64,000 nucleotides of DNA from a virus: IMG/VR virus record IMGVR_UViG_3300045988_123611; one strand, written 5' to 3'. A program made the position numbers and the translations under genes. Shown one piece after another: positions 472 to 38,948 of the stretch. Numbering within the stretch: the stretch's first letter is position 1; each line of letters begins with the position of its first letter. The notes under the pieces were generated by a model that worked only from the letters and a program-made list of their open reading frames with translations, made no database searches and was not told the origin of the DNA.

Positions 472-1262
472 TTATATGTTTTTCCATTCATCATCAGTGT
501 ATAAATTTATAATTTTTTTTGTATTAGGTAAATTATAAGAAATACACCATTTTCTAATGGAATTATCACTTACATGATATATATTCGCGATAGAAGTAAA
601 ACTTTTATTACGAATCAATTTTTTTAATTTATCACGAGAAGGTCTTTTAATTTTTCGATGTTCTTTAGCAGAACATTTCTAACATTTTTGACCTTTTCCG
701 CTCCACTCTCCACCACATATAGGACAAACTTTTTTTAAAAGTTTTTTCTCTTCTTCTGGTTTATTTTTATCAAAACGAGAATAATGTAAAGGATAATTTA
801 ATTTTTCATTAAACCAAGTTCTTCCAACATTTATATCTCTAATAGTATCTTTACTAACTTTATATTTTTTAGCTAATTCCGAATGATTAACTACACCTAA
901 CTTATCATTAATTAAAATATTTTGAATATCTTGGACTTCCTAATAATTTAATTTTTGATAAATTACGCGATAATCTCCACCTATTGTCTAATTATACTCT
1001 GGTTTATAATAATCAATCCAATAAGTTTCTCTACTATTTAGATTATCAATTTCACATTCTTCTAACACTTCAAATATAAAATTAGAAACACCATATTTTC
1101 TGAAACTTTGATATAAGGGATAATTATAGCTTTTACTCTTTTCATCTTGGGAGCTATATATATGATTTTCCCAACGTTCTGCTATATTTCTTGACTATCC
1201 AATATAACAATGATTATTTATTTTATTAGTAATTTTATAAATTCCTATCATATTACCATCTC
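472..1262 (-). CDS. GIY-YIG homing endonuclease with C-terminal zinc finger/HTH; four in-frame TAG codons
   Basis: Translation MIGIYKITNKINNHCYIG(tag)SRNIAERWENH gives the GIY-x9-YIG motif. The TAG falls exactly at the conserved Gln of YIGQS. CPICGG...C finger. AAGGAG RBS. It is an ORF only if TAG is sense. Confidence 0.75.
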
Positions 1263-1334
1263 CTTACACTATAATTAAAATTTTATTTAAGATAATTATA
1301 ATTTTTCGACCTCGAAAGTATTTAGGTGATGATA

Positions 1335-1407
1335 TGGTTGCGGTCGGGCGATTCGAACGCCGTTTTTGGCTTATGAGGCCAACGAGCTACCTTTGCTCCA
1401 CCACCGC
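1335..1407 (-). tRNA. tRNA-Met (CAT)
   Basis: Acceptor GCGGTGG, anticodon loop CTCATAA, T loop GGCGTTCGAATCGCC, 3' CCA encoded. Confidence 0.75.
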
Positions 1408-1409
1408 AA

Positions 1410-1485
1410 TGGTCGGTCAAATTAGAATCGAACTAATATCCCTTGTCTTATGAGAACAATGCTCTACCAGTTAAGCTATTGACCG
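1410..1485 (-). tRNA. tRNA with CAT anticodon (second Met/initiator or Ile2-lysidine type)
   Basis: Acceptor CGGTCAA, anticodon loop CTCATAA, T loop TTAGTTCGATTCTAA, CCA encoded. Confidence 0.7.
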
Positions 1486-1642
1486 AAAATAGGATAGATA
1501 TAATATTCATGACTATTATATCTATTGGACTTTCTAACCTATCGTCCCAAAATTCTTAATAGACCTCATCAAATGGCCAACTTTTGTAGAGGCTTTTGTG
1601 CGACCACCTGCGCACTTACATAGACATAAGAATAATGCCAAC

Positions 1643-1722
1643 GTATGGCGACCCCGACGGGTGCCGACCCCGCTATCTCCAGCGTGACAGGCTGGCGGCT
1701 CTGCTGACTGCCCCCAGGGCCA
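1643..1722 (-). ncRNA. GC-rich tRNA-like element, unresolved. Possible anticodon arm CCAGC-CTGTCAC-GCTGG (GTC, Asp) but non-canonical T arm.
   Basis: A 65% GC island inside the tRNA array with a good anticodon-arm hairpin. I could not fold a canonical acceptor/T arm by eye. Confidence 0.25.
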
Positions 1723-1724
1723 TA

Positions 1725-1801
1725 TGGTACTCCCAGCCGGATTCGAACCGGCGACTCCAACGTGAAAGGCTGGTGACTTAAGTCCGCTTGTCGATGGGAG
1801 C
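1725..1801 (-). tRNA. tRNA-Glu (TTC)
   Basis: Acceptor GCTCCCA/TGGGAGT, anticodon stem CCAGC/GTTGG, loop CTTTCAC, T loop GGTTCGAATCC, CCA. Confidence 0.7.
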
Positions 1802-1868
1802 ATATTAAATAGACTATAAAGCCGTTTATTAGGGCAAATAATATTTCAGTTCCTTACTAAAAGCGATA

Positions 1869-1946
1869 AAAGTAAGGTGGTGGCGCGAAGGGGATTCGAA
1901 CCCAACTATCGCGAGAGTGAGAATCTCGCATCCTAAACCGTTAGAC
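1869..1946 (-). tRNA. tRNA with anticodon CTC (Glu, GAG)
   Basis: T loop GGTTCGAATCC. Anticodon arm GCGAGA-TTCTCAC-TCTCGC with U33 and A37. CCA encoded. Acceptor has one mismatch. Confidence 0.55.
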
Positions 1947-1959
1947 GACCGCGTCATAT

Positions 1960-2216
1960 TTAAGCACATCTATCATAATCTTGATTTTTGTGCTTTTGTT
2001 TTCGCTTAAACGAGCCTTTACCTTTCTTCGCAGGAACTTTAAATCCTCTGCGCCGAAACAATTGAAGATACTCATTAAGCTCTTCCTTATTCTTTTTCAT
2101 ATAACTTTTATTCACGGTATTCATCCTCATCTTCATAAAGGGAAAGATCCTGATAAGCAGCATATTCATCACTCTGAATCTCGCAAGCATAGCTTTCATA
2201 GTAATCATTATACATA
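1960..2216 (-). CDS. small hypothetical protein(s). A 35-aa acidic ORF is favoured by RBS spacing, with an overlapping 82-aa alternative frame.
   Basis: Class-A early promoter and AAGAAAGGAAG RBS upstream. The frame is ambiguous. Confidence 0.3.
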
Positions 2217-2224
2217 ATTTAAAT

Positions 2225-2280
2225 CTTCCTTTCTTAACTTTCTATAAATATTATAACTTATTTTTTATAAAATGTCAAAA
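2225..2280 (-). promoter_or_regulatory. Class-A early promoter: TTGACA-N17-TATAAT plus conserved ATATAGAAAGTTAAGAAAGGA leader
   Basis: The reverse complement reads CTTTTGACATTTTATAAAAAATAAGTTATAATATTTATAGAAAGTTAAGAAAGGAA. The same module recurs upstream of about 20 minus-strand genes. Confidence 0.6.
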
Positions 2281-2394
2281 GATTAAAAGACCAACCAAAA
2301 GCGATATTTGTTAACGATGGTCGCCACTCCACCGCCGTCAATATTCACAAACACTTACCATTTTCACACTAACCTACTAATTAAAGGAGGTGAC

Positions 2395-2482
2395 TGGTGC
2401 TTCGAGAGAGACTTGAACTCTCACCATCCGTTCGGATAATCGGGTTTGAGCCGATCGCGTCTGCCAATTCCGCCATCAAAGC
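2395..2482 (-). tRNA. tRNA-Leu (CAA), class II with long variable arm
   Basis: 88 nt. Anticodon arm ATCGG-CTCAAAC-CCGAT, variable arm ATCCGAACGGATGG, T loop GAGAGTTCAAGTCTCTC, CCA. Confidence 0.7.
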
Positions 2483-2496
2483 ATAACTAAGAGGAT

Positions 2497-2625
2497 TTTT
2501 AAGAAGAATCCTCAAAACTTCTTTCTAATCATCTAATTGGATTTTTAAGAAGAACCCTCAAAACTTCTTTCTAATCTAACGGAAGTTTTAAGAAGATCTT
2601 CCAACTTCTTTCTAATCTTAATCGC
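2497..2625. repeat. Three tandem copies of a ~42-bp unit (TTTTAAGAAGAATCCTCAAAACTTCTTTCTAATC...), each with an internal AAGAAG/CTTCTT inverted repeat
   Basis: Direct inspection. Followed by the GC hairpin GGGCGGCCGTCCCTTCGCGGCG. Confidence 0.7.
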
Positions 2626-3029
2626 ACTTTAGGGCGGCCGTCCCTTCGCGGCGTCACGATTTGCATAATTTACTGTATTACCATTTTATTTTCCGAAAAA
2701 GGCTACAAACCAAAATGGGAGTTATTTAAGAATAACTTCTAGACTACGCTAACTGCTCAAATTTTCTCTTCTTAGTGGGAAAAACTTTCTTAGCGCTGAA
2801 ACCAAAATCACTATTAGCATTTTGTATATATTATCTTATTGTATATAAGTTTTATTAATATACCTTATCTATTATATCATTTAGTATATTGTATTAATGT
2901 TTAATTAATAAGATAATATTTCTGGCTGTTTTTATCACCAATCATATAATTGGTTATATTGGGCAATGCTCCCAAACTTGCGGTTTACTTAACCGCCGTG
3001 CTTACTCTTTACACCATATAACCATATAA

Positions 3030-3108
3030 TGGTGGACCTCGTGAGAATCGAACTCACCTGATTTTCTGTGTGCAAGACAGACGACCACGCCATGCAGTCC
3101 CGAAGCCC
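3030..3108 (-). tRNA. tRNA-Ala (TGC), tentative
   Basis: T arm GTGAG-TTCGATT-CTCAC. Anticodon arm TCTGT-CTTGCAC-ACAGA. Acceptor GGGCTTC/GAGGTCC has two G-U pairs. CCA encoded. Confidence 0.45.
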
Positions 3109-3195
3109 GAAATGCGACTTATTTATGTATAGATGGAGTCGCCAACCACCTGCGTTCAAAGTCCGCAAGCCTTCAACGCATTCCCAGGGAGGGAT

Positions 3196-3272
3196 TGGTG
3201 CTGGAGAAAGGACTCGAACCTTCAGATTAATGATCCTAAATCATTCGTCTATGCCAATTCGACTACACCAGC
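3196..3272 (-). tRNA. class-I tRNA with anticodon TAG (decodes CUA, Leu-type). G37 present.
   Basis: Acceptor GCTGGTG/CTCCAGC. Anticodon arm AATGA-TTTAGGA-TCATT. T loop GGTTCGAGTCC. CCA. Note it is not the CTA suppressor. Confidence 0.55.
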
Positions 3273-3284
3273 AAATAAAGAGTT

Positions 3285-3380
3285 TTATAACCCACATCGC
3301 GAAGATTCGAACTTCGTCAACCGTTAGGACTCGAACCAACTTTTACTCTTTTGGATTCCCAGAACCCATAGCCTTGATTA
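3285..3380 (-). ncRNA. tRNA-like element with two T-loop-like motifs (GTTCGAGTC and CGAAG-TTCGAAT-CTTCG). Possible long-arm or degenerate tRNA.
   Basis: Motifs seen by eye. A full cloverleaf was not resolved. Confidence 0.25.
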
Positions 3381-4153: not shown

Positions 4154-4164
4154 ATAAAACAAGA

Positions 4165-4250
4165 CCTTAACTTTGTCCGGAAAATGGATTTGAACCATTA
4201 ACTTAATCTTAAATGATTATGACCTAACCTTTAGTCTATTCTGGAAGTTA
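4165..4250 (-). ncRNA. tRNA-like gene with atypical anticodon arm. Perfect stem TAATC/GATTA but a 6-nt loop ATTTAA.
   Basis: T arm AATGG-TTCAAAT-CCATT, D arm GACT...GGTC, acceptor TCCAGAA/TTCCGGA. Loop geometry is non-canonical. Confidence 0.3.
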
Positions 4251-7724: not shown

Positions 7725-7725
7725 A

Positions 7726-9477: not shown

Positions 9478-10454
9478 TTGACTAATCCTCCAATACAATC
9501 TTTACAATACTCGCTGTGTGGGTTCGCAGGGTCAATTTCAAATGCCTCTTCACACTCCGCACACCATTCAACATTACTGGGAATACAATCAGGACAATAA
9601 AAACATGTATGTCCATCTAATCCCTTTACTGGAAATGTTTCATACTCACTAAATAGCTGACCGCATCCTCTACAATGAACGTAGAATCCATCGCCATCAG
9701 TTGGAAAATTCTTACAAATATTATCGAACCAAATATTATGATAATTACGATAATACTCAAAATTAGGGATATCTTTCTCTTGGAGCATGCGGATTACCTT
9801 ATTAATCGTATCAAAAAGAGCGCCCGCATTTAATGTTTCAACATGACTATGTTCATTCTTGTATCCAACTGAAAGATTTACACCACAAATTTTCCATTCA
9901 GGACATAAAACACTAATATCACTAAACGTGCCAAAATCCTCTACAAATCCAAAAGATTCAATGTAATCAATGAATTTAGGATTGTAAAGGTCGTAAAATA
10001 CACAATCATTTGTGCCTTGTCTATCCAACTGAATAATATATTTCAAATCAGGAAATGGACACTCAAAATATTGTAATACTAATGCTTCGGCGCCTAATCC
10101 ACCAATTTCTTCATCAGTGGTAAAAATAATAGAAGGGCGCAAAAATGTATTCCTCAAAATATGAAGAATCGCATATACTCCTGCTCTATCATCTGCACCA
10201 AGACCTTCAGGTGACCAAAGCACATTTTTTCTTGTGTCATAATATAAATCTTTGACCGGTTTCTCAAACACGGTATCAAGATGAGCCACTAAGGCAATCG
10301 GAATATCGCCAACCGCACAAACATACTCTTTAGTAATAACTACTTCAGAATATTTAGATTTCAATACATCGGCAACATATTCCCTTAACTCATCTTGCGT
10401 CGAGCGAACCAGATATTCAAATAACCAAAGTTCATTAGTTTTAAAACCTCTCAC
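9348..10454 (-). CDS. M42/M20-family metallopeptidase-like domain fused to C-terminal zinc ribbons
   Basis: Motifs AHLDTVF, GADDRAGV, FTTDEEIGGLGA and IQLD match the co-catalytic metal ligands of M42/M28 peptidases. The C-terminus is CxxC-rich. The 3' end overlaps the next gene by about 130 nt. Confidence 0.55.
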   Translation of the reverse strand: MRGFKTNELWLFEYLVRSTQDELREYVADVLKSKYSEVVITKEYVCAVGDIPIALVAHLDTVFEKPVKDLYYDTRKNVLWSPEGLGADDRAGVYAILHILRNTFLRPSIIFTTDEEIGGLGAEALVLQYFECPFPDLKYIIQLDRQGTNDCVFYDLYNPKFIDYIESFGFVEDFGTFSDISVLCPEWKICGVNLSVGYKNEHSHVETLNAGALFDTINKVIRMLQEKDIPNFEYYRNYHNIWFDNICKNFPTDGDGFYVHCRGCGQLFSEYETFPVKGLDGHTCFYCPDCIPSNVEWCAECEEAFEIDPANPHSEYCKDCIGGLVKCHMTSTSKALENSSTKSSVTPKESVIQKQKNYSKDSSKPKKT

Positions 10455-10505
10455 AGTTTATTCTCCTATCTTTTATCTTATATTTATATTATAACATTAT
10501 TTTTT

Positions 10506-11306
10506 TTATTTGTCAATTGAGTCCTCTTCCGCCTCGGGGATAGGATTATTCTGCTTACTTGCTTGAACGGCTTTATCTATAACACGAGAGAATATAAATG
10601 CGGTTTCACAATAATGGCACGTCCCTTGTCGTTGACAGCGCTGACCGCAATTGATGCGGTTGGGGCCAAAATCTTCGGGGATTCCACGATTATCCGCATT
10701 ATAATTTAGATTGGTTAATAAAAGGTTTAGATTACCTTGCCAATGACCGCTTTGGTAGATATCCAAAAGCACAGCTTCTTTGGAGAGTGCGGGCTCGTCG
10801 AATTCTAAAGTTGAGACATATGTTCCATAGTAATCTACGTCTTCCGGTCGGACGTAGGAACCGCATATCCCATTTTCTCTTGGAAGGTTATCGTCATAGC
10901 ATTTATTCGCAATCATACGGATTGGAACTTTTGCTTGCTGATTTAATTGTCTCAAATCAAATGTAAGCGGTGCTCCGATAAAAAGTTCGCTAACTCCAAG
11001 GTCAAGGAGAACGCGGACTTCTGCCCATGTAGTAGCAGGATAAGCAAAATAATACTTTACATCAATATTACACCCATTACGAGTAAGCATATCTTCAAAT
11101 GCTACAATAAGATCAACTTTATCCTTAAATGAATCAATCTCTTCCCAATTCACTTCTTCATCTTTGCGGATTCTGATAATATATCGCTTATTAGAGAATT
11201 TCTAAATCATATCATACATAATGTTTATATCATTATAATTAACCATAAGCTCATCAGCCTTTTCGCGAACGGCATCAGGTTGGCGCACAGAAACACAATA
11301 TTTCAA
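10506..11306 (-). CDS. hypothetical protein. Either 215 aa from ATG 11153, or about 267 aa from TTG 11306 including one in-frame TAG.
   Basis: The in-frame upstream extension carries AAGGAGTGATATAA-TTG. The start is uncertain. Confidence 0.4.
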
Positions 11307-11477
11307 ATTATATCACTCCTTTATAATATAATTATAATAAAAAACTCCAATTTTGTCAAGAAAATTCTAAACGGCTTTTTACTTTTGGACTTTCGGTATG
11401 TGCGACCAGCACCGGTCGGAGCAGATAACAAGAAAAAATGGACTGAAAAATTTTCAGTCCATTTAATCATTTAATGC

Positions 11478-11894
11478 TTAGTCCTCAGCGACAATCTTGC
11501 GATAAGCCACTTTCTTTGAAGCCTTACCGCCATCAGCACCCGGAACGGAAACCTCAGTCTTCTCCGCGCGATTCTCGCTCACAAGAGTGCGGAGTCGATA
11601 ACTCGCCTTCTGAGCAGAAACGCTCTCATCGCCGAGAGCCTTGACGATCTCAGGGATGGTCATAAACTCATCGTCATAAAGAACATTATAAATCTGCTCA
11701 GTCAGCTCATCACCCTCAGCACGCTTGGCGGCCGCACGCTCCTTAGCCTTGGCGGTCTTCTTATCAAGCAACTCAATCTCATGCTCACAGAATGCGATCA
11801 CATCATTGGGATCATACTTGATCTCACCAGTGTGCATAGCTCCGATAATCGCGGTCAGATAATCGCGCTTAGAAACCTTAACTTCATTAGTCAT
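11478..11894 (-). CDS. hypothetical protein, member of a 3-copy small-protein family (with 32781-33218 and 35404-35784). Possible winged-helix.
   Basis: Shared N-terminal SKRD(Y/R)...A and C-terminal basic segment. GC-rich relative to its neighbours. Confidence 0.5.
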   Translation of the reverse strand: MTNEVKVSKRDYLTAIIGAMHTGEIKYDPNDVIAFCEHEIELLDKKTAKAKERAAAKRAEGDELTEQIYNVLYDDEFMTIPEIVKALGDESVSAQKASYRLRTLVSENRAEKTEVSVPGADGGKASKKVAYRKIVAED

Positions 11895-22087: not shown

Positions 22088-22690
22088 TTAATAAGCATTA
22101 TCTGCTTCGCCGAGATAATACATAACTTCACCAACATCAGTAATTTTACCTTCAACAGTGATATAAATTCCAATAGTAGTATTTTTAATAAACTCATATA
22201 CATCAGAAGTTTTCTTCATCTTCCACTGAATTGTATTGGTAATAACAAAACTATCATCATCTTCGGCAATAGTAAAATATTTACCATCACTATCTACATT
22301 CCGCACATAACCTGAGACGCGGATATACTGACCCTCGTAATCTTCTGCCTGCATAGGGTAATTATCCACAAGAGCGATCATATCGCTAATATTTTCATTA
22401 GAATATTTATCTTCTTCGCTTTTGGTCGCGGTTTCCTGCTCTTCGATCTCTTCGACGGGATCAACCGCACTCTGAGACGAGACTCCCGCGCTTTCTACAA
22501 CCGGAGTGCGGTATACCATAGGTTCGGGATCGGGATTCCTAATGACATAATCAATCCCCGTAAAGATGATAAGCACAAGGAGAATGTGGAACTACGTCTT
22601 ATCATAGAAAGGAACTTTTACATTGCCTCCACAAAACGGACAAATCTTTGACTTATCAGAAATGGGCTGACCGCAATGTTTACAAATAAT
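22088..22690 (-). CDS. zinc-ribbon + single-TM protein with one in-frame TAG (~200 aa)
   Basis: N-terminus MIICKHCGQPISDKSKICPFCGG, then (tag), then TM FHILLVLIIFTGI. GGAGAATAAAA-ATG start. Confidence 0.45.
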
Positions 22691-22704
22691 CATTTTTATT
22701 CTCC

Positions 22705-27884: not shown

Positions 27885-28035
27885 TTTTACCAAAAATGGT
27901 CATTTCAAATGAAAATGGTCAAAATTTTCTATATGTTGGTCAAAAATTTCTATAAAAATGGTCAAAAATTTCTATATTTTTGGTTAAAAAATGGTAGATA
28001 AATGGTCAAAAATTTCTATATTTTTGGTTGTATTT
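27885..28035. repeat. Iteron array: at least 5 direct repeats of (A)TGGTCAAAAATTTCTATA spaced ~21-25 bp
   Basis: Sequence reads tggtcatttcaaatgaaaatggtcaaaattttctatatgttggtcaaaaatttctataaaaatggtcaaaaatttctatatttttggttaaaaaatggtagataaatggtcaaaaatttctata. Confidence 0.7.
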
Positions 28036-28099
28036 TTTAGGTCAGGAACAAATAATAGATTATAAATAATTTTTAAATAATAGTGAGAGGAGGTGTGTT

Positions 28100-28723
28100 A
28101 TGGAGATAAAGAAAAATTCTCGATAGATTCCCTCTGTTCCGACTATTACACGAGAAAAAGATTATTGTGATTTATTATATGCTTGGTTGTAGTGTCATTC
28201 AGAGAGAATTACTATGGATAGTGAAGGTCGTCGAATTAATAAGTCATTAGTTAAATGGACGGCCATAGAAAAAGACTTTGTTAGAACATTGTCAGATGGC
28301 ACAACTGAAAAAGTTATGTCAAGAAAAACTATTGCGAAATATTTCAAATATTTAGAAGATAAAGGTTTAATTCAATTACAAGATGATGGTTATTATTATT
28401 TGACTATATTAGATGCTACAGAAGCTAATTTAATTGAATATAATACTTTATCTAAATTAATAAATGTTTTATAGAAAAATAGTTTGAGTATTTATGTTTA
28501 TTTGTTTAATAGATATTACGCCAATGGTTTTTAGCCATTTATTGCTACTATTAAATAGATAAAAGAATTTATTGGTATTGCCACTACCACAACATCTAAT
28601 AATATTATTGTAGATGATACAATTGATATTTTAAAAAGATTAGGATTATTAGATTATAGAATTAAAACTGAAGATAATAAAAGTTATTTAGAGTTTTAGT
28701 GGGTAAAGAACGCGTTAGAATAA
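28100..28723 (+). CDS. winged-HTH replication-initiator-like protein, iteron-flanked, six in-frame TAG
   Basis: GAGAGGAGG RBS + ATG. Central segment LVKWTAIEKDFVRTLSDGTTEKVMSRKTIAKYFKYLEDKGLIQL is wHTH-like. Iteron arrays lie on both sides. Confidence 0.5.
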
Positions 28724-28724
28724 A

Positions 28725-28800
28725 AATGGTCAAAATTTTCTGACGGAGTGGTCAAAATTTTCTGATAAATGGTCAAAATTTTCTACATTTTGGTCGTTTT
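28725..28800. repeat. Second iteron array: 3-4 copies of TGGTCAAAATTTTCT(G/A)
   Basis: Sequence reads aaaaatggtcaaaattttctgacggagtggtcaaaattttctgataaatggtcaaaattttctacattttggtcg. Confidence 0.7.
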
Positions 28801-28930
28801 TTAGAAACCATATAAATAGTAATAGTAATAGTTTTTAAAATAGAGGGTATATATTTATAAAACTCCGGGCTACGCCCTTCGTTTTATAAATATATACCGG
28901 GGTATTTTTTGAGAGTAAAAGGAGTAAAAT

Positions 28931-30155: not shown

Positions 30156-30221
30156 ATATTAGGCAATTCTTGGTGAAATTGTCGATTCTTAGGATGAAAA
30201 ATATCTCACCCGACACATTGT

Positions 30222-30602
30222 TCACTTATTGATGAAAGTATTCAAAAAATCGGCAATTACATCATCATCAGTTCTCTTGACCTTCTTAACCTTTACTTTT
30301 TCACTCTTGGGAAAAAGCACGTCAAGAAGATCGTTAACCCCGGTCATAAGACCGTAAACCTCAGCAAAGATGTTCTCCACATCGGACGCGGTCAACGCGG
30401 AATCCTTGTAGCCATTAAGAGCGGCATACTCGTTAATCCGATCGGCGATTTCCTGCGCGAGTGCGGTCTTCCGATCGGCCTGCTTGGTTTCCTTCTCTAC
30501 CTGCTTGACCGCAGCGTTCAGAGATTTAGCCATTTCGTCCGCAATAGTCTGAGCGTCCTCACCATTCTTCAGACGAGCAATAATATCATTCATATCCATA
30601 TG
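30222..30602 (-). CDS. hypothetical protein (~126 aa). First gene of the GC-richer cassette block.
   Basis: AAGAAAAGAGGT RBS before MDMNDIIARL. Confidence 0.5.
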   Translation of the reverse strand, partial: HMDMNDIIARLKNGEDAQTIADEMAKSLNAAVKQVEKETKQADRKTALAQEIADRINEYAALNGYKDSALTASDVENIFAEVYGLMTGVNDLLDVLFPKSEKVKVKKVKRTDDDVIADFLNTFINK

Positions 30603-30919
30603 AATACCTCTTTTCTTATTTTCTATATATATTATATACTTTTTTTTTAAAAATGTCAAGATTTTTTTAAATGAAAACATACGTGTGAAACAATGTAAGG
30701 GCGAAGCAATTTTTAATTAATCATAAAGGCATATGATCCTACGCGGGCTTAAAAAAGTCTTTTTTTACCATTATAACATATTTTTTATAAAAAGTCAATT
30801 TTCGGGATTTTTTTGGGCCATATGGAGAGGTGCTAGAAGTATGAGAAATTTTGCATATGGGTATACCGATCGGAAACTCGGCCCGAGACGTTCCACCTCG
30901 GGCCGGCCAACCCAATGTA

Positions 30920-31534
30920 TTAGAGCTCTTGAAGCAACTCCAAAGTTTTTTCGTATCCATACTTATTTATCAATCGAGTTGTTTCAATTGTAATTTCTTT
31001 TCGATTCATTAACATCCATCTGGTGTTATCTTCCGGCGAACCCCATCTAAGATTTTCTAATCTATTATCAGTGCGGTTTCCGTTAATGTGATCTACAATC
31101 TATTCTTCAAAATTAATATTTGGTTGCCAAGATTGTAATACTACACGATGTAAATTATAATTCTAATTATCAATAGAAACTCTAACATAGCCCTAATGAA
31201 TTGTTCCTTTTAAAATTATTTTAGTTCGTTTATTTCTTACTCGACCTAAATTAGAAACTTCATAATTTTTAGAGCAATAAGTTTCTATCCATTTTTCACC
31301 TTCTAGTTCTGTCGTATCACTTCCGCGAGTAGAAAATAAAGATTTATCAACATCTTGTTTTTCTGCGCGTTCAACTGTATAAATTGCTTTTGCTCCAATA
31401 CCTGTCCTTGTAATTAAAAATCCTCGTTTTAATTGATTTTTACAAAACAAAGGAAAATTTGTATTAATTGTGGAGATGGCTACTCCAAAATAATCTGCTA
31501 ATTCTTGTTTATTCAAAATAATCAGTCCTTTCAT
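30920..31534 (-). CDS. HNH homing endonuclease with N-terminal HTH and NUMOD4-like motif, three in-frame TAG
   Basis: ETYCSKNYEVSNLGRVRN (NUMOD4-like). (tag)GYVRVSIDN...LHRVVL...DHINGNRTDNRLENLRW (HNH_3). AT-rich insert in a GC-richer region. Confidence 0.7.
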
Positions 31535-31738
31535 TATTATATAAATTTCGGGATTTCATAATTTTCTATTTTTGTCCGATAATTTTTCGCAAAATTTGCT
31601 AAACCTATAATTATTCCGAAATTCCGCCCGGAGCGTCAGTGATCGGGCGGTTCATTATACCACATTTTCCGATCGGTGTCAATAGGCAAAATGCACAAAA
31701 AAAATCAGCAGGTTTTAGTCAACCTGCTGATTGAATAT

Positions 31739-32155
31739 TTATGCAAGAAATGCGCTTACAATTTCATCGAAAACCGTGGGGTTAATGTCCACATTAAAAA
31801 AGCGGTCGTTCTTGCGGAACGCTTTGGGGTAGCGTCTAATCAGTTCCGCACGCAACGCGCTTTCCGCACCCTCGGCGGGATAGTCCCCGCAAGAACGGAT
31901 TCGATGAACTTCAACGCGCGTGATAGAATACTTTTTCGAGTATTCGCCGATTTCATCACGCAAGCGCCCTACAACGTCTTTTGCGGACGTGCCTACCTTG
32001 TTAAATTCAAGTTTGTTGTTGTTGTAAAACTTGAAAAAGTAGACCGCTTGAACGTCTTTCAGATTCTCGCCACAATTAGGCATAAACTCCATTGAAACGG
32101 GTGGTCTACCGTCCTTAAATCGGCGTAGCTTAATAGTAATTTCTTCCATCGGCAC
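31739..32155 (-). CDS. hypothetical protein (138 aa). Weak GIY-YIG-like pattern.
   Basis: Pattern VYFFKFY...KVGTS...RLRDEIGEY is weak. Confidence 0.45.
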   Translation of the reverse strand: MPMEEITIKLRRFKDGRPPVSMEFMPNCGENLKDVQAVYFFKFYNNNKLEFNKVGTSAKDVVGRLRDEIGEYSKKYSITRVEVHRIRSCGDYPAEGAESALRAELIRRYPKAFRKNDRFFNVDINPTVFDEIVSAFLA

Positions 32156-32272
32156 AAAATCCTCTCTATTGATTGAGGTTTACCATCGTTCTCTCAACCA
32201 TTATTTTTTACCCTTTTTTGCTTGTTTTTGGGTGAAAAACCGCATTTTTCAGCGGTTTTTCACCCTTTTTCG

Positions 32273-32680
32273 TCAGTTTTTGGGCTTTCGCTTTTGAATC
32301 AGGGTCAATTCATAGTCATTTTCGCCCACATGGAACGCAATCATGCGCTCGACATTCGTAATTTCTACATTTTCGCACGCATTTTCGCTGTTTTCACGCA
32401 AAAAAGTCGCAAGTTCAGCGATAATCGAGCGTTTTGTGGGGTTTTCCTTGCGCTGTCGCTTCTCAAACTTATAAGCGGTCGGCGCTTTGCGTGTTCCGGT
32501 CTTAGAATACTTGTTAGCTTCTTTCAGCTTTTCCGCGGACAGGTCAAAGTCCTTGGCGATTCCATGGTCAATGTCATCATCGTCCATGAGAATTTCTTTT
32601 GCTTCCTCGGCAGTACAATCCAACTTTTTCATCAGATTATCAATCTTTGCCTGAAAGTCCTTTTCACTCATTTTAGGCAT
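32273..32680 (-). CDS. hypothetical protein (135 aa)
   Basis: ORF. Confidence 0.5.
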   Translation of the reverse strand: MPKMSEKDFQAKIDNLMKKLDCTAEEAKEILMDDDDIDHGIAKDFDLSAEKLKEANKYSKTGTRKAPTAYKFEKRQRKENPTKRSIIAELATFLRENSENACENVEITNVERMIAFHVGENDYELTLIQKRKPKN

Positions 32681-32780
32681 TTCTTTTGCCCCCTTTCAAG
32701 TATGATTATAACACCGCCGTCAGCAAATGTCAAGAGAAATTTTTGGGAGCGCCTAATTTTTTTTAGGCGCTCCCCCTGAA

Positions 32781-33218
32781 TCAGTGAGCGAGACGGAAGT
32801 AGGACTTGCGCTTGTCCACAATCTTCTCGACGCCGTTCGCTTCAATCATCTGACGCAGAAGAGCGGAAACGCGCTGGTTGGTGAGGTCGCCCAGACCGTC
32901 CACGTTCTTGATGAGGTCGGTCACGGTGTACAGCTTGTCAGGGTTTGCGGACAGCTCAGCGAAGATAATGTCCTTGTAGCCGTCGTTGGCAATCTGATTC
33001 GCGGTCGGCTTCTTATCTCCCGAGTTCTTACGAGCCAACAGGTCAATCTCGTGATTGATAAACTCAACCATAGCGGGGTCAGCCTGAACCTCGCTCATTT
33101 TGAGCAGAGCCTCGAAACGGTCGCGCTTGGTGAGCTTCTTAACAGTAGAAGTAGACATAGTATCAATTCCTTTCTTTGGCGGTAGGTCGCTACCCTTTTG
33201 ATATATTGAGTATACCAC
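32781..33218 (-). CDS. small protein family member A (145 aa), paralog of 35404-35784. Possible winged-helix.
   Basis: About 70% identity to 35404-35784 across KKLTKRDRFEALLKMSEVQA...NQRVSALLRQMIEAN. Confidence 0.6.
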   Translation of the reverse strand: MVYSIYQKGSDLPPKKGIDTMSTSTVKKLTKRDRFEALLKMSEVQADPAMVEFINHEIDLLARKNSGDKKPTANQIANDGYKDIIFAELSANPDKLYTVTDLIKNVDGLGDLTNQRVSALLRQMIEANGVEKIVDKRKSYFRLAH

Positions 33219-33699
33219 ATTTTAGAGTGCTTGTCAAGAGGTTTCACAAACTTTTCACACGAATTACTACCCCGACCTGACGGATAATTTATTGTTTGTT
33301 GATTCAATCTATTTGTCAGCGGAAAACCGCGTCAAGGATAGTTGGTTCAATCAAACTCACTTTCGCGTTCAACGTTTGGCTTTACAACGTGGTGTATTAT
33401 GTTTTCTTCCTGTACTTTCTCAAGGTCGCGCGCCCTCGGATTTCTTGGGCTACTCCCTCTTGACATTTTCTATTGTAGCACACTCGCTGGGATTTGTCAA
33501 GAGGTTTTCAAGAAAAAACTCATGAATTTTTTCTTTTATCCCGTGCGTTCCGCTCCGAAGAGACCTTAACGTAATAGGTGAACGGTCTATTGCTACTTCC
33601 AACCGTAGCCCCACACCGACCTGTGGCTCAGGGGTTCCCCTCTTGACATTATCTATTATAACAGATTGCCCACGGATTACAATTGACAAAATAACCAAA

Positions 33700-33895
33700 T
33701 TACGGGAAAAAATTTTCTTTACTTTTGTGCAACTTTTCTCTTGACAAAATTGGCGGGGCGTGATATAATGGTGAATTCGGCCCGCTTTGGGCGTTGGCGG
33801 GCCGGCCATTTTATCATAAAAGTTCTTGTTTGTCAATAGACAAAATAGACAAAAAAAACTACCCATTTTTGGGCAGTTTTTTTATTTTAGTCCAG
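33700..33895 (+). ncRNA. Plus-strand mini transcription unit, copy 1: promoter TTGACAAAATTGGCGGGGCGTGATATAAT, GC hairpin, ATTTTATCA, TTGTCAATAGACAA, terminator
   Basis: Elements in the same order and spacing as the other six copies. Confidence 0.5.
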
Positions 33896-34132
33896 CAGGT
33901 TAATCTCACCGGGAATTTTGAAAGAATCAGCGTCCAGTGTGGAATTGTAGTCCTCGGTAAAAAGGTCAATCATTCCACATTCCATGATGTAATTCTGCAC
34001 CGCCCGCTGAACATTTCTCCAAAGGTCAATCTTTCGGCTTTCCTCGCGGGCTTTTCTGGCTTCCTGTATCTGGATAATGAGTTCGTCCAGTTCCTCGTCG
34101 GTCATGTAATTCAAATCTAAATCCATTTTCAA
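33887..34132 (-). CDS. hypothetical protein (81 aa)
   Basis: ORF. Confidence 0.45.
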   Translation of the reverse strand: MKMDLDLNYMTDEELDELIIQIQEARKAREESRKIDLWRNVQRAVQNYIMECGMIDLFTEDYNSTLDADSFKIPGEINLLD

Positions 34133-34416
34133 AACTCCCCTTTAATTGCTTCTTTCCATGCATCCCAGCCGAATTTTTCCTCGCGGTCTAACTTCTTGCC
34201 AATGTCTTTTGCGGTCAGTAGGTCAAGCTCGTCCGCAATCTCATCTTCAAAGTTTACCCAAGAGTCGTAGGTCTGAATAATGAAAACTTCATCGGCTTCA
34301 AAGACGCCACCGCACTCGGCGCAGATAATATAGTCATGGTCGATTAAAATGCCCATGTGAGGGTCATTGTCATCAGGGACTACAAAAAGGACTTGTTTAG
34401 CGTTCATGTGAAACAC
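34129..34416 (-). CDS. hypothetical protein (95 aa)
   Basis: Class-B promoter and AAAGGAAAGGGG-type leader upstream. Confidence 0.5.
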   Translation of the reverse strand: MFHMNAKQVLFVVPDDNDPHMGILIDHDYIICAECGGVFEADEVFIIQTYDSWVNFEDEIADELDLLTAKDIGKKLDREEKFGWDAWKEAIKGEF

Positions 34417-34484
34417 CTCTTTCGTTTGATGTATTGATTATACCATAGGGAATAGGACTTGTCAAGCCCTATTCCCTATTTTTT

Positions 34485-35261
34485 TTAGCTCATGTTTACA
34501 ACGGGATTTTCCTTAATGTTTCGCATGAGCGCGCGCTGAAACTCGGTAGGCTTGGGGCGTTCCGCCGTGGGAGTTTTGAAAAGGGACTTTTCCATGGTCT
34601 TATGCTGTCGGACGCAATAGCGCAGAATCTCAACTTCAATGAGAACATCTTCAAGTCCCGTGTGGGATTCATCAAAGCTGTCCTCACCGCTGATAAAGCG
34701 ATAAAGAATTTCTGCGGTAAAGCGGAGCTGTCCGTTCTTGGTCTTGTAGCCGTTCTTTTCGCAATAGTCGCGGTAAGTGGGCATTTTGCCGATAACCTGT
34801 CGCGCCATTTTCAACGTGTCCCAAATTTCGAGGTCGTAGGGAAAGAAATAGCGATACTTGCTTTTCGTGTCCCATCTTTGCGCGTTGTTGCAGGCGTTAA
34901 GGTCGAACCGCATATTATGAGCACAGACAAAAGAGCAGTTGTAGCGCTCGACACATTCGCAGAACGCCTGACGAATTTCGTAAAGGTCAGCCATAATGCG
35001 CGAACCGTTCTTAATGTCCTCAATGTAGCGAGGAATCTTGTCGGCGTAGTAGGCAGACCGCATGAGGTCGCGTTCGTAGCAGAAAATGTCGCGATTCACA
35101 AAGGAATGAGTTTCATAAACATTTCCCTTGGAATCAATGACCGCCCAGCCGAAGTCGTAGGGAAGCACATTTGACATATCCAGCTTATCGCCATCCTGAA
35201 TGGTGTTTGCGGTTTCCGTGTCCAGCATAATGCCGTAGTTTTTGCGCCTATCAATACCCAT
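34485..35261 (-). CDS. DEDDh 3'-5' exonuclease (DnaQ/RNase T-like)
   Basis: Exo I IMLDTETAN, Exo II AHNMRFD, Exo III HTGLEDV. Confidence 0.75.
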   Translation of the reverse strand: MGIDRRKNYGIMLDTETANTIQDGDKLDMSNVLPYDFGWAVIDSKGNVYETHSFVNRDIFCYERDLMRSAYYADKIPRYIEDIKNGSRIMADLYEIRQAFCECVERYNCSFVCAHNMRFDLNACNNAQRWDTKSKYRYFFPYDLEIWDTLKMARQVIGKMPTYRDYCEKNGYKTKNGQLRFTAEILYRFISGEDSFDESHTGLEDVLIEVEILRYCVRQHKTMEKSLFKTPTAERPKPTEFQRALMRNIKENPVVNMS

Positions 35262-35403
35262 CTTATCGTCTCCTATTGGAAAAGTAGATTGAGGTTTACC
35301 ATCGTTCTCTCAACCTCTGATAATAGTATAGCACTTTGCTATTGGTTTGTCAACAGTTTTTTTTGTAGGGCAGGGGATTTTTTTATCCCCTGCCCTTTTC
35401 CCT

Positions 35404-35784
35404 TTACGCGAGGGAGAAGTAGGACTTGCGCTTGTCAACCGTCTTGACAACGGTGTTGGCCTCAATCATCTGACGCAGAAGAGCGGAAACGCGCTGATTG
35501 GAGTAGTCCGCAAGCTCGGGAACGCCCTTGATGAGGTCGGTCACGGTATACAGCTTGTCAGGGTTTGCGGTCATCTCGTCCAGAATGACCTGCTTCACAG
35601 TGTCATTCTCCATCTGCTTGGCCGTGGGCTTCTTGTCGCCCGCGTTCTTCTTGGCGAGCAGTTCAATCTCATGCTCGATGAACGCCACCATGTCAGGATT
35701 TGCCTGAACCTCGCTCATTTTGAGCAGAGCCTCGAAACGGTCGCGCTTGGTGAGCTTCTTAGTGGTAGAAGTAGAAGTAGCCAT
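35404..35784 (-). CDS. small protein family member B (126 aa), paralog of 32781-33218
   Basis: See 32781-33218. Confidence 0.6.
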   Translation of the reverse strand: MATSTSTTKKLTKRDRFEALLKMSEVQANPDMVAFIEHEIELLAKKNAGDKKPTAKQMENDTVKQVILDEMTANPDKLYTVTDLIKGVPELADYSNQRVSALLRQMIEANTVVKTVDKRKSYFSLA

Positions 35785-36287
35785 AGTATCAATTCCTTTC
35801 TGGTTTTTAAGACTGTCCTTGTCTTTGATGTAGTTATTATACCATAGGCGGAGCAGGTTGTCAATAGTTTTTGCAAATTTTTTTTAGGGGCGGTCGCGAG
35901 GTTTATTACTATACATCTTGTTTATACCTACCTTTATCTATACTCATAAACCAATTCATTTTACTAAACCAAATTAGTCTTTAAGGCGGTGGGCGAGCAT
36001 TAGAAGTCATCTTGTTTTTACCTCTCTCATTTGATGTATTCATTATACCCTACGTAGAACGGTTTGTCAAGGGGTTTTTCAAACTTTTTTTGAAAGTTTG
36101 TTCGGCACGCCACGCTTGGAACATTCCGTCGGATTTTGGTATAATGAATGGTCAAGAGAACTGCCTTTCCGAAGGTCTTACTCTTTCCTCCTGACATTAT
36201 GTAGTATAGCAGATTGGTAATGATTTGTCTATTGGTAAAATAGCTAAATAACGGGAAAAAATAAAATTGAAATTTGTGCGAAATTTC

Positions 36288-36435
36288 TCTTGACAAAAAT
36301 GCTGGCAGGGTGTATAATGGTAAATTCCGGCCGTAGCGCGCGGAAACGGCCGGCCCATTATATCACATTCAAGGAATTTTGTCAATGGTCAAAGTAAACA
36401 AAAAAATCTCCCCATTTTTGGGGAGATTTTCTTTT
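36288..36435 (+). ncRNA. Plus-strand mini transcription unit, copy 2
   Basis: CTTGACAAAAATGCTGGCAGGGTGTATAAT, CCGGCCGTAGCGCGCGGAAACGGCCGG, CCATTATATCACATTCAAGGAATTTTGTCAATGG, terminator ATCTCCCCATTTTTGGGGAGAT. Confidence 0.5.
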
Positions 36436-36691
36436 AGCCAATCACACTGACTTCGGTTCTGACAGGCGTTACCATCTTGTCGCGCGAGAACTCGCGAACC
36501 TGACCCGTTTCAAGATTCACCGCGTAGCAATACTGCGAACCTCTCGACCGGACAAACGGCGTGTTGTTGTTGCTGTCAATTTTGAGATACATTCCCATAC
36601 CGCTACCGTTAGAGCGCAGAGTGGTGAACGTGCCACCGCTGAGAATGTTGATAATTTGGAGCTGACCCTTAGTGCCAAAATTTACTTTCAT
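36434..36691 (-). CDS. hypothetical protein (85 aa)
   Basis: ORF. Confidence 0.45.
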   Translation of the reverse strand: MKVNFGTKGQLQIINILSGGTFTTLRSNGSGMGMYLKIDSNNNTPFVRSRGSQYCYAVNLETGQVREFSRDKMVTPVRTEVSVIG

Positions 36692-36707
36692 TTTTATTTC
36701 TCCTCTC

Positions 36708-36852
36708 TTAAAGCAGATGTTCCTTGACCCATTTTGCGGTCACGGTCGCGCGTTCTTTGGTGATAACAGTTTCATAGATGAAAAGGTCGTCATCAATCTT
36801 TTCAACTACTTTTCCGATGATTCCAACATCAACCCAAAAATAAGGCATCATT
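36708..36852 (-). CDS. hypothetical protein (~47 aa, start MMPYFWVDV)
   Basis: AAAGGGGTGATAAAA-ATG. Confidence 0.35.
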
Positions 36853-36856
36853 TTTA

Positions 36857-37063
36857 TCACCCCTTTGAACCGACCGAGAAGATGGACTGCAAAAGCACGA
36901 GAATAATCCAAATTGCGAGTGCCAGCTTCCACGAGAACACGATGACGAAAGTGCCGATTGCGGTAATACCGAGGGCGGGAAGAAGCCAACAGAGAAGCCA
37001 AACCAGACCAGAGGTAGCAAGGAACGAAAATGCGAGAGACAGCAGAATCAAAAGAACAAACAT
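36857..37063 (-). CDS. two-TM membrane protein (~68 aa)
   Basis: AAAGGGGAAAATAAA-ATG before MFVLLILL. Confidence 0.45.
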   Translation of the reverse strand: MFVLLILLSLAFSFLATSGLVWLLCWLLPALGITAIGTFVIVFSWKLALAIWIILVLLQSIFSVGSKG

Positions 37064-37117
37064 TTTATTTTCCCCTTTCATTTGATACATTTATTATACC
37101 ATTGGAGTAGGGTTTTG

Positions 37118-37618
37118 TCAAGCCCTTTTCTCCAAAAGTTCCGAAAGTTTTTCGATAATGTTTACTGCGGTTGGGTCAATGGTTTCACCCAAGTGCCAAC
37201 CATTCCGAACCTTTTCATTATCGTCAACCAAGATGGACACGTCATAGCGGTCGCGCACGCTGTCGGCCTTAGTCGCGCCATATTGGACGCCGTGGAAGTG
37301 GTCATAGTGGAAGCCCTGTTCTTCAAGCCACGCGCGCTTTGCTTCACGCACGAGGTTTTTGTATTCCTCGCTCGAATCTTTGGAAAGCCAAGTGATGATG
37401 TTGATTTCCCAGCCCTCGGCGCGGAGAAGTTCGCAAACCTCATTCAATTCAGCCATATCACACATGGGAACGGCAGTCCGATAGGGCTTAGGATTTTCCG
37501 AACGGAGAAGTGCAAGCCAATCCTTGACGCCGTAGAGGTCAGCAATAGTGCCGTCCATGTCAAAGTTGATGGAGCGTCGAGTGGCCACAACGTGGGACTT
37601 GATGTAAGTGATTTTCAT
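37118..37618 (-). CDS. HAD-superfamily phosphatase (deoxyribonucleotidase-like)
   Basis: Motif I FDMDGTIADL (DxDGT). Motif IV ILVDDN. Confidence 0.7.
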   Translation of the reverse strand: MKITYIKSHVVATRRSINFDMDGTIADLYGVKDWLALLRSENPKPYRTAVPMCDMAELNEVCELLRAEGWEINIITWLSKDSSEEYKNLVREAKRAWLEEQGFHYDHFHGVQYGATKADSVRDRYDVSILVDDNEKVRNGWHLGETIDPTAVNIIEKLSELLEKRA

Positions 37619-37734
37619 AGGTATTTACCCCTTTCCTTTACTGTATCCATAGTATAGCAGATTATTACATTCTTGTCTATTGGTAAAATACCCAAATTCG
37701 GGAAAATAATTAGTTGGACTTTTGGCTAAATTTC

Positions 37735-37887
37735 CTATTGACAAATTGCTGAGATGGTGGTATAATGGAAATTCCGGCCGTGGCATGCGCAAACGGCCGG
37801 CCATTTTATCACACTATTGGATTTTTGTCAATAGGCAAAATAAATAAAATTTTGAGACGAGATTTGGTTATCTCGTCTCAAAATATT
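37735..37887 (+). ncRNA. Plus-strand mini transcription unit, copy 3
   Basis: ATTGACAAATTGCTGAGATGGTGGTATAAT, CCGGCCGTGGCATGCGCAAACGGCCGG, CCATTTTATCACAC, TTGTCAATAGGCAAAATA, terminator TTGAGACGAGAT...ATCTCGTCTCAA. Confidence 0.5.
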
Positions 37888-37888
37888 T

Positions 37889-38341
37889 TTAATGTTCGGA
37901 CACAATGCTGAGGTAGCGGACAATCATGTCCATTTCGCAACCCATGTCCTGCTGGTCGCAAACCGCATAACCCACAAGGTCGCCGTCCGCACAAATCGGG
38001 TAAACGCCATAAGTGTTATTGAAAACAAACGGCTTTCTTTTAAAATCCCACTGGGTCGAAACATAAGGCGGAAAGTTTTCCATACCCCGCAGTTTCACGG
38101 TAGTATCATAGATTGCGATGGGACGCAAACCGGAATTTGATGCCATTGTAATAGCGGTTCGCAGAGCTTCTTCGGTCAAAGAGCCAAGCACCAAATACCT
38201 CTTGAAGCAAACGCAGTCGTTGTCTTCAATGAAGATTTCGAGCGGGTCTCCCTCGCGAATCTTCAAAGTCCGGCGAATCTCTTTCGGGATAACCACACGT
38301 CCAAGGTCATCAATTCTGCGAACAATACCAGTAGCTTTCAT
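37889..38341 (-). CDS. AbrB/SpoVT-family transcriptional regulator (swapped-hairpin N-domain + C-terminal domain)
   Basis: N-terminus GIVRRIDDLGRVVIPKEIRRTLKIREGDPLEIF matches the AbrB/MazE/SpoVT DNA-binding fold. 150 aa, as in SpoVT-like proteins. Confidence 0.7.
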   Translation of the reverse strand: MKATGIVRRIDDLGRVVIPKEIRRTLKIREGDPLEIFIEDNDCVCFKRYLVLGSLTEEALRTAITMASNSGLRPIAIYDTTVKLRGMENFPPYVSTQWDFKRKPFVFNNTYGVYPICADGDLVGYAVCDQQDMGCEMDMIVRYLSIVSEH

Positions 38342-38405
38342 TTTAATTTTCCCCTTTCACTTGATACATTAAGTATAGCAGAATAAAAGGCTTTTGTCAA
38401 GCCCT

Positions 38406-38948
38406 TTATTCAAGATTTTTCCAAAAATAACCGTAAGCGCTCTTTCTTCGTCCTTTTATTACCGCGCTGATATTTGAACTGGCGCTGTCTGATAAATTGA
38501 GAAAATGAATGGCATCACGGACACTATCAAATTCTTTAATTGTTTCATGAGTGGTTTTATTACATATCGCAACTTTTACACAATAACCATTCTTCTTTCG
38601 TGTTTCAACAGATTTTAGAATTCTGTTATCATAATGATTATTCTCTTTATACGTGCACCATTCTAAATTTGAAACATTATTATTTAATTTATTACAATCC
38701 AAATGATTAACACAAGGTAAATTATTTGGATTTGGTATAAAAGTTAAAGCTATTAAACGATGAACTCGACAAGCTTTTTGCTAATTATTTTTACATAAAT
38801 TAACATAATAATATTTTTTCCCTTCTGGACCTCTTAGTTGCAAAGAAAGAAATTTCTTATGTTTCATACTCCAAATCTATCCGTCAGAAGTGGCTTGATA
38901 CCAACCTTCATAACCTGGCACATCTCTAAAAATTCTATTCACTTAGTT
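38406..38948 (-). CDS. HNH homing endonuclease with AP2-like C-terminal domain, two in-frame TAG, GTG start
   Basis: VPGYEGWYQATSDG(tag)IWS (NUMOD4-like). HRLIALTFIPNPNNLPCVNHLDCNKLNNNVSNLEWCTYKEN (HNH). ETIKEFDSVRDA...YGYFWK (AP2-like). Confidence 0.65.

Follow-up and report, generated by a model that had tools for sequence, protein, structure and literature searches.

The 64,000-nucleotide (nt) stretch of virus record IMGVR_UViG_3300045988_123611 analyzed here (the window), covering only part of a roughly 160-195 kb genome, carries three homing endonuclease genes that contain TAG codons in frame: a GIY-YIG gene within the transfer RNA (tRNA) array and two HNH genes, hereafter HNH1 and HNH2, inside a block of genes that avoid TAG. 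These are most probably ordinary free-standing endonucleases that tolerate TAG, circulate among recoded phages, and would be made at full length only under amber suppression. The window belongs to a large gut siphophage of Firmicutes with TAG recoded to glutamine (Gln), and its large terminase gene (terL) groups it with phAss-1 and with the Enterococcus EF1 and Geobacillus E3 phages. Comparisons included 80 related IMG/VR loci (terL identity 67-99%); relatives are labelled with L-numbers.

Endonuclease genes and their insertion sites

The three genes and the segments associated with them are listed below.

472..1251, minus strand: GIY-YIG homing endonuclease gene, 259 amino acids (aa), ATG start, G+C content (GC) 0.24
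422..1403, minus strand: segment missing in L196 and L104, with junctions from blastn and MAFFT
30920..31534, minus strand: HNH1, 204 aa from ATG 31534, GC 0.30
30910..31652, minus strand: insertion/deletion carrying HNH1, 743 nt, clean junction
31654..31682, minus strand: perfect promoter (TTGACA-17-TATAAT, with TG) immediately upstream of the HNH1 insert
38406..38942, minus strand: HNH2, I-HmuI-like HNH endonuclease, 178 aa, GTG start, GC 0.30
38421..39216, minus strand: HNH2 replacement segment, 796 nt in place of 192 nt
38965..38993, minus strand: TTGACT-17-TATAAT promoter that arrived with the HNH2 cassette
39010..39492, minus strand: membrane-protein-like gene, mosaic, upstream of HNH2

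The first-pass annotation, made from the sequence without database searches, had proposed three TAG-recoded nuclease genes, and Pfam, PHROG, and structure matches bear this out, with four in-frame TAG codons in the GIY-YIG gene (codons 19, 88, 104, and 191), three in HNH1 (114, 124, and 145), and two in HNH2 (22 and 54), and no other in-frame stops in any of them. PHROG homing-endonuclease families match the three genes at 1e-24 to 1e-42, and their catalytic motifs are intact. The GIY-YIG gene, which begins at an ATG with the Shine-Dalgarno sequence AAGGAG and matches PHROG 7168, reaches 40.4 bits against PF01541 (cut-off 22.6) and E 3e-7 against the I-TevI catalytic domain structure 1mk0, and the pattern GIY...YIG(TAG)S...R...E...N is readable in its translation. 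Its remaining part shows, by eye, a CPIC...CqKC (CxxC...CxxC) motif and a C-terminal stretch resembling a helix-turn-helix (HTH), for which HTH_Tnp_ISL3 scores 22.3 bits, under the cut-off of 27.4.

HNH1 consists of an N-terminal region that looks DNA-binding, followed by NUMOD4 (38.5 bits) and HNH_3 (42.2 bits), both above the curated cut-offs, and its NUMOD4-HNH core matches I-HmuI (1u3e). The N-terminal HTH of its former label, HNH-HTH, has no Pfam profile match. HNH2 resembles I-HmuI throughout its length (E 7e-15, residues 5-173 aligned with 3-167 of 174), with Pfam matches to NUMOD4 (31.3 bits), HNH_3 (27.4 bits), and the I-HmuI_NUMOD-like family PF22083 (27.9 bits, cut-off 27). It had been labelled HNH-AP2, but no Pfam match to AP2 (PF00847) was obtained at E <= 0.01 and the C-terminus is of the I-HmuI-type NUMOD/helix-turn-helix kind, so that the label should read I-HmuI-like. 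The His/Asn motifs of the two HNH genes, DHINGNRTDNRLENL and NHLDCNKLNNNVSNL, are present in the translations. As for coordinates, those first given for HNH1 (30920-31534) were retained, the GIY-YIG end at 1262 proved out of frame and was moved to 1251, and the HNH2 start was shifted from 38948 to 38942. At that position HNH2 does start with GTG, as had been suggested, and this start is common to the copy in L200. For HNH1, TTG 31516 (198 aa) is a more likely start than ATG 31534, since it is preceded by the Shine-Dalgarno sequence AAAGGA and homologues begin with MNK.

The HNH1 insert is located in a 5' leader, with the promoter at 31654..31682 on one side and gene 30222-30680 on the other. 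Only one of the 12 close relatives spanning the site carries the gene (L081). The exact empty site is found in L084, L085, and L093, where the junction of the L084-type leader reads ...TATAATGAG followed directly by GGCCGGCCCG..., and the promoter is also present in the empty-site relatives. Three others (L082, L083, and L088) lack the open reading frame (ORF) and retain about 120 nt from the 5' part of the insert, and L090 has a different filler of 478 nt.

At the HNH2 site, the 12 close relatives spanning it (approximately 90-96% nt identity in the flanks) lack the gene and have 192 nt in place of the 796-nt segment, which consists of HNH2 itself, an intergenic promoter, and, in diverged form, the final ~200 nt of gene 39010-39492. 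The last 3-4 codons and the stop of HNH2 (K-N-L-E-stop) in the ancestral state formed the 3' end of the upstream gene, whose L083-type orthologue reads ...GAAGAGAAAGCCCGCAAAGACAAGCTATGG and then AAAGTCGAG... across the empty-allele junction. The product of the upstream gene is itself a mosaic: its N-terminal 88 aa are identical to those of the endonuclease-less L085, and its C-terminal 69 aa share 24% identity with L085, 46% with the distant endonuclease-bearing L201, and 100% with L200. This mosaic is interpreted either as a tract of co-conversion or as an allele of the target site that is linked with the endonuclease gene. HNH2 arrived together with a diverged upstream 3' end, a co-conversion signature such as homing is expected to leave in a flank (PMC2988022). 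Both L200 and L201 carry HNH2 at the same site; the L200 copy is 94% identical at the aa level and shares the GTG start and both TAG codons, and the L201 copy (67%) has one in-frame TAA and therefore looks decayed. In addition, 77 nt of the HNH2 catalytic core (38636-38712) show 87% DNA identity to the HNH homing endonuclease gene of a marine phage of Bacteroidota, Cellulophaga phage phi19:1; these 77 nt were the only match when 10-kb pieces of the window were compared with GenBank phages by megablast, which otherwise yielded nothing useful.

The GIY-YIG gene lies directly 3' of a tRNA gene. The segment that L196 and L104 lack (422..1403) contains a second tRNA-Met(cat) gene (1335-1408), an 83-nt leader, and the endonuclease gene, and is replaced by about 80 nt in L196, as a tRNA-Met/tRNA-Asn spacer, and about 145 nt in L104, with flanks 93-98% identical. 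Genomes with and without the endonuclease have different alleles of the adjoining tRNA. A paralogue of 43% identity is found in L109, L196, and L197 directly 3' of a different tRNA-Trp allele and behind a similar leader. The second tRNA-Met(cat), on the minus strand just upstream of the GIY-YIG cassette, has no sequence kinship to the adjoining one and occurs in the window and L197, not in L104 or L196; the L197 contig stops before the endonuclease site. This tRNA gene may travel with the cassette.

None of the three genes is universally present at its locus, in agreement with the mobility first proposed for them. Their presence in some close relatives and absence from others indicates that they are recent or sporadic insertions.

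Genetic code, codon usage, and timing

TAG is read as Gln (code 15), as several observations show. Reading through TAG raises coding density in the structural blocks, from 0.53 to 0.96 at 4.3-7.7 kb and from 0.73 to 0.93 at 48.5-64 kb, and the two minus-strand middle blocks are nearly insensitive to the code (0.86 to 0.88 and 0.84 to 0.87). At three positions of a Vsr-like gene beside terL, TAG alternates only with CAA and CAG in orthologues of at least 50% identity. The same alternation is observed in HNH1, as two of its three TAG codons are CAA and CAG in the L081 orthologue (92.6% aa identity), where another Gln codon has turned into TAG. The ratio of non-synonymous to synonymous substitution rates (dN/dS) between these two copies is 0.081 before the first TAG and 0.083 after it, and the value for HNH2 after its first TAG is 0.11. 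These data show that TAG is translated as Gln in the endonuclease genes, which are under purifying selection.

The codon usage of the three genes was compared with that of other gene sets through the G+C content of third codon positions (GC3) and the choice among CAA, CAG, and TAG.

Three endonuclease genes: GC3 0.12-0.20, CAA:CAG:TAG 15:0:9
Sixteen late genes: GC3 0.21, CAA:CAG:TAG 109:36:61
26 genes of the 30-48 kb block: GC3 0.53, CAA:CAG:TAG 18:55:0
32 genes of the 7.7-27.5 kb block: GC3 0.38, CAA:CAG:TAG 51:66:0

The AT-rich, CAA- and TAG-using endonuclease codons match those of the recoded late genes and not those of the GC3-rich neighbors of the HNH inserts. The two inserts together have a GC3 of 0.19 and a TAG share of Gln codons of 0.36, against 0.21 and 0.30 in the late genes. 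They had been described as AT-rich islands among TAG-free genes, and indeed the only 400-nt segments below 30% GC in 30.2-47.6 kb (30909-31632 and 38355-39249) are these inserts, and the four genes flanking them contain no TAG. Depending on the comparison, TAG use differs between endonucleases and neighbors at p = 5e-5 to 6e-10. The maximal read-through ORFs of the middle blocks added no more than nine single TAG codons, most of which fell where an ORF ends or within repeated intergenic elements. None of the other AT-rich spots and TAG-containing maximal ORFs of these blocks was nuclease-like, and most of the TAG codons lay upstream of the likely start or in such repeated elements. One gene with a zinc ribbon and a transmembrane segment (22088-22693, minus strand) seems to require one TAG (codon 34) joining its two parts, and may be the one non-endonuclease exception with a real TAG in the TAG-free middle block. 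The GC3 contrast between the 30200-48500 block (0.53), the late genes (0.21), and the 7.7-27.5 kb block (0.38) amounts to a strong codon-usage split inside one phage genome.

The first-pass annotation had suggested that the endonucleases either belong to the late, recoded expression class or were acquired from other recoded phages. Codon usage and TAG share are in line with the former, and TAG-bearing relatives in recoded phages with the latter. Homologues of HNH1 with 51% identity occur in the homologous block of two much more distant phages (L194 and L195), where the flanking proteins are 25-45% identical; these homologues have a GC of 0.27 and four and five TAG codons, and their neighbors are TAG-free with a GC of 0.37-0.50. 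Endonuclease genes of other TAG-recoded phages likewise have in-frame TAG at partly shared positions. In the recoded L043 and L045, HNH and GIY-YIG genes adjoining terL contain six and seven TAG codons, whereas a GIY-YIG gene adjoining terL in L058, whose terL has no TAG, contains none, which argues that endonuclease genes follow the code of the resident lineage. The code state also differs inside the terL clade, as L052, L058, L076, and L080 (67-71% aa, terL at ~10001-11773) have no TAG in terL and other members have 4-7, so that it varies within the family.

The reading that we consider most probable can be put as follows. The endonuclease families would circulate within the gene pool of recoded phages, where nothing would select them for translation before the code change, and they would therefore tolerate TAG. 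In the absence of suppression, ribosomes are predicted to halt after 18 residues in the GIY-YIG gene, after 21 in HNH2, and after 113 in HNH1, which would leave a fragment without the nuclease. Full-length, active enzyme would be made only once amber suppression operates, despite the strong sigma-70-type promoter before each HNH gene; since full-length enzymes would need this suppression, activity would be confined to the phase of the code change. From these predictions we infer late-only translation of the endonuclease genes.

Three alternatives would make the genes something other than intact, free-standing members of such a pool. An intron or intein origin might be suspected because terL of Enterococcus phage EF1 has an interruption annotated as an intron, in which an HNH gene lies. 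However, no group I intron reached the Rfam gathering score anywhere in the window, where the only hits were tRNAs, and the empty-site alleles show that HNH1 was inserted into a 5' leader and the GIY-YIG gene between tRNA genes, and that the HNH2 segment replaced the end of a gene, which retains a new stop codon of its own. With junctions that are intergenic or at a gene end, all three genes are free-standing, as first described, with no split host gene, and the intron or intein explanation is highly improbable. Homing endonuclease genes often degenerate, as the L201 copy of HNH2 with its TAA illustrates, and TAG could in principle be a true stop in decaying pseudogenes. The in-frame stops are nevertheless exclusively TAG, a codon used 61 times as Gln in the late genes, and its alternation with CAA and CAG in orthologues, dN/dS values of 0.08-0.11 downstream of the first TAG, and intact motifs with full-length profile and structure matches lead us to reject this explanation, which we regard as scarcely credible. 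It is also conceivable, though unlikely, that AT-richness and TAG mark only a very recent import from an AT-rich recoded donor and not an expression class. The HNH2 cassette did bring a 200-nt foreign-type flank, and no close HNH2 donor was found in IMG/VR (best match 45%). Against this, the HNH1 family keeps its AT-rich, TAG-bearing character at 51% identity in the homologous blocks of distant relatives, so that this state is long-lived and not that of a transient, un-ameliorated import, and the GIY-YIG paralogues have two TAG positions in common at 43% identity.

A further alternative is that TAG has been positively selected as a timer delaying the nuclease to late infection, where it would protect early replication or align homing with recombination-dependent replication, the same job as that of the hairpins sequestering the ribosome-binding site (RBS) of I-TevI, SegB, and MobE in T-even phages. 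Both HNH genes lie behind strong sigma-70-type promoters, with TAG inside or before the catalytic domain, and the pattern is repeated in diverged lineages. T4 endonucleases are kept to late times by translational control (PMC2988022), and a comparable mechanism has been proposed for the intron endonuclease of TGA-recoded Agate phages (Borges et al., bioRxiv 10.1101/2021.08.26.457843). However, the TAG share of Gln codons in the endonucleases (0.375) is not above that of the late genes (0.296; p = 0.48) and gives no sign of selection, TAG positions swap freely with CAA and CAG, and endonuclease genes in the late regions of relatives are equally TAG-rich. Tolerance thus explains the data as well as a selected timer and accounts for them without selection, and such a timer is possible but rather improbable. 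A broader proposal, which we hold doubtful, is that the code switch contains selfish nucleases generally, the genes being transcribed from the start of infection and silent until suppression, with TAG as a selected general timer of homing. HNH1 would be an exception to such containment, as its 113-residue DNA-binding fragment without a nuclease domain could occupy or mark the target. If the proposal were true, recoding-based timing would replace the RBS-hairpin control of T-even phages.

Besides this lack of excess TAG, several points weigh against the preferred reading of tolerated TAG and suppression-dependent synthesis. The contrast between endonucleases (TAG in 9 of 24 Gln codons) and the 58 standard-code ORFs of the middle blocks (0 of 190; Fisher p = 6e-10) arises partly by construction, because TAG was counted as a stop when the limits of the neighboring ORFs were set; their TAG-free state has independent support in a coding density that hardly changes between codes. 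The mobility comparison for the GIY-YIG gene comprises two empty-site genomes (L104 and L196). The 'early' label of the 30-48 kb block is based on promoter consensus and gene content. Between 30 and 41 kb there are 64 sigma-70-like sites, against 21.9 +/- 4.6 expected, and eleven perfect ones, nine of them on the gene-coding minus strand, including one upstream of HNH1. The structural operon at 48928 likewise opens with a perfect sigma-70 site; promoter type therefore does not establish timing, and an assignment of early and late blocks by it was rejected as decisive. When two sets of ten middle-block proteins were scanned with Pfam for 'early' functions, almost all were without known function. 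Finally, none of the 12 tRNAs of the window is a CUA suppressor; the distant relatives L130, L131, and L141 do encode CUA tRNAs.

One tRNA gene of the window (4175-4245, minus strand; Rfam 42.7 bits) is unusual in its six-base anticodon loop, AUUUAA, in which Infernal aligns UUA, a stop-codon reader. The same odd gene is found in L104 (15229-15299) and L109 (16028-16098). In L104, a 96%-identical relative, the loop is CUUCAA and the anticodon UCA, although L104 uses TAG, not TGA. It was not accepted as a TAG suppressor, since its anticodon is UUA here and UCA in the TAG-using L104.

The Vsr-like gene and other features of the window

A gene between terL and the portal gene had been proposed as a fourth selfish nuclease with similarity to DUF559 or Vsr.

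51220-52959: terL, six in-frame TAG
52972..53328, plus strand: Vsr/PD-(D/E)xK-like gene, 118 aa, three TAG

The terL product is 47% identical to those of Enterococcus VRE9_4, H1, and EF1, 46% to that of Geobacillus E3, and 45% to that of phAss-1. The Vsr-like gene matches PHROG 9084 and 559 at 1e-26, has no Pfam match to DUF559, and reaches 23.6 bits against DUF2726, under the cut-off of 24.7; its protein has no sequence match to solved structures in the PDB. The proposal of selfishness was not upheld, as all 76 relatives that extend to the portal gene have it in the interval from terL to portal, and it adjoins terL in three more loci whose contigs end before portal. Its identity among relatives (69-97%) is often above that of terL or portal of the same locus, and it is also found directly downstream of terL in phAss-1 and in the standard-code Enterococcus phages EF1, VRE9_4, and H1. 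Real endonuclease genes come and go on both sides of it in L043, L045, and L058. The gene is thus a fixed core gene that is neither mobile nor selfish, and its position suggests a fixed role in the packaging module. A nuclease-dead protein was considered, because the Asp of E-x-D-G is Gln or Asn in the clade, and this idea was dropped, since E-x-Q and E-x-N variants of PD-(D/E)xK sites can be active. The terL-side nuclease-like gene is called 'homing endonuclease' in some GenBank records, yet it behaves as fixed core, which should serve as a warning for annotation.

The same hot spot as that of the terL-side endonucleases is occupied in L064-L066 by a 1.5-kb AT-rich insert (GC 0.18-0.27) between terL and the Vsr-like gene. 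Its two TAG-containing proteins appear, by eye, HAD/kinase-like and cytidylyltransferase-like, and not nucleases.

Other features were observed outside the endonuclease loci. The 30200-48500 block contains, besides an excess of perfect TTGACA-17-TATAAT promoters, repeated intergenic elements of about 200 nt (for example 37849-37650, 36403-36202, 33881-33639, and 40279-40103) and a paralogous pair of genes (32781-33218 and 35404-35784, ~75% aa identity) of which relatives also have both members. Within 27900-28930, an ORF on the plus strand (28100-28723) with six in-frame TAG codons is surrounded by no fewer than eight copies of AAATGGTCAAAA(A)TTTTCT, and strand and GC skew switch at this site. 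This region looks like an iteron-type replication origin with a recoded initiator gene.

Relation to known systems

All three endonucleases belong to known families, in which they are unexceptional, and a precedent for their recoding has been published. HNH2 resembles I-HmuI of Bacillus phage SPO1 over the full length, including the NUMOD4 sheet, the HNH motif, and the C-terminal helix-turn-helix. I-HmuI, however, is encoded by a group I intron that interrupts the DNA polymerase gene, whereas HNH1 and HNH2 are free-standing with in-frame TAG, and the extra putative DNA-binding region is N-terminal in HNH1 and C-terminal in I-HmuI. For the Vsr-like gene, a comparison can be made with HNH proteins of the HK97 gp74 type, which belong to phage packaging modules. 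The likeness is one of position only, that of a small nuclease-fold protein fixed beside terminase and portal, as the fold is HNH in the former and PD-(D/E)xK/Vsr-like in the window gene.

The GIY-YIG gene is of the T4 SegB/I-TevI type, being likewise free-standing between phage tRNA genes with an N-terminal I-TevI-like catalytic domain. The gene for SegB lies between tRNA-Arg and tRNA-Ile; the enzyme has the tRNA intergenic region as its target, which is preferentially inherited as a result, and T-even phages delay their endonucleases by RBS-sequestering hairpins (PMC2988022). The window gene differs from SegB in its Firmicutes-type host and its four in-frame TAG codons, and the likeness is seen in the I-TevI catalytic domain.

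The window shares with phAss-1 ('Phassvirus'), a TAG-recoded gut phage (PMC10607447), the Vsr-like gene downstream of terL, structural genes with TAG as a Gln codon, and large tRNA arrays. The relationship is only distant (terL 45% aa), and phAss-1 has three CUA suppressor tRNAs, none of which has a counterpart in the window. The relevant passages of the phAss-1 paper do not discuss recoded endonucleases, the word 'endonuclease' being mentioned there once (PMC10607447).

The mobile nuclease genes described here use the recoded codon inside blocks that avoid it, and their anatomy is unusually well resolved, with empty sites and a tract of co-conversion as well as several independent lineages open to comparison. 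The published idea that recoding gates late translation can thus be tested on genes that are small and dispensable and whose domain boundaries are known, and the junctions provide concrete candidate target sequences for three new endonucleases.

The closest precedent is that of the TGA-recoded Agate phages, in which recoding preferentially affects the endonuclease of a group I intron inserted into an early gene, leading to the proposal that in-frame stops block endonuclease production until late (Borges et al., bioRxiv 10.1101/2021.08.26.457843). The likeness lies in recoded stops within an endonuclease whose surrounding region otherwise lacks such stops. The work of Borges et al. reportedly appeared later in Nat Microbiol 2022. 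The Agate endonuclease is intron-encoded, TGA is read as Trp, and the preference is a statistical one across one lineage, whereas the window has three free-standing genes of two families in which TAG is read as Gln at no excess over late genes, with junctions and empty sites defined. The window carries that precedent over to HNH and GIY-YIG genes that are free-standing and belong to a TAG-recoded member of the phAss-1/EF1 group, and their junctions are resolved.

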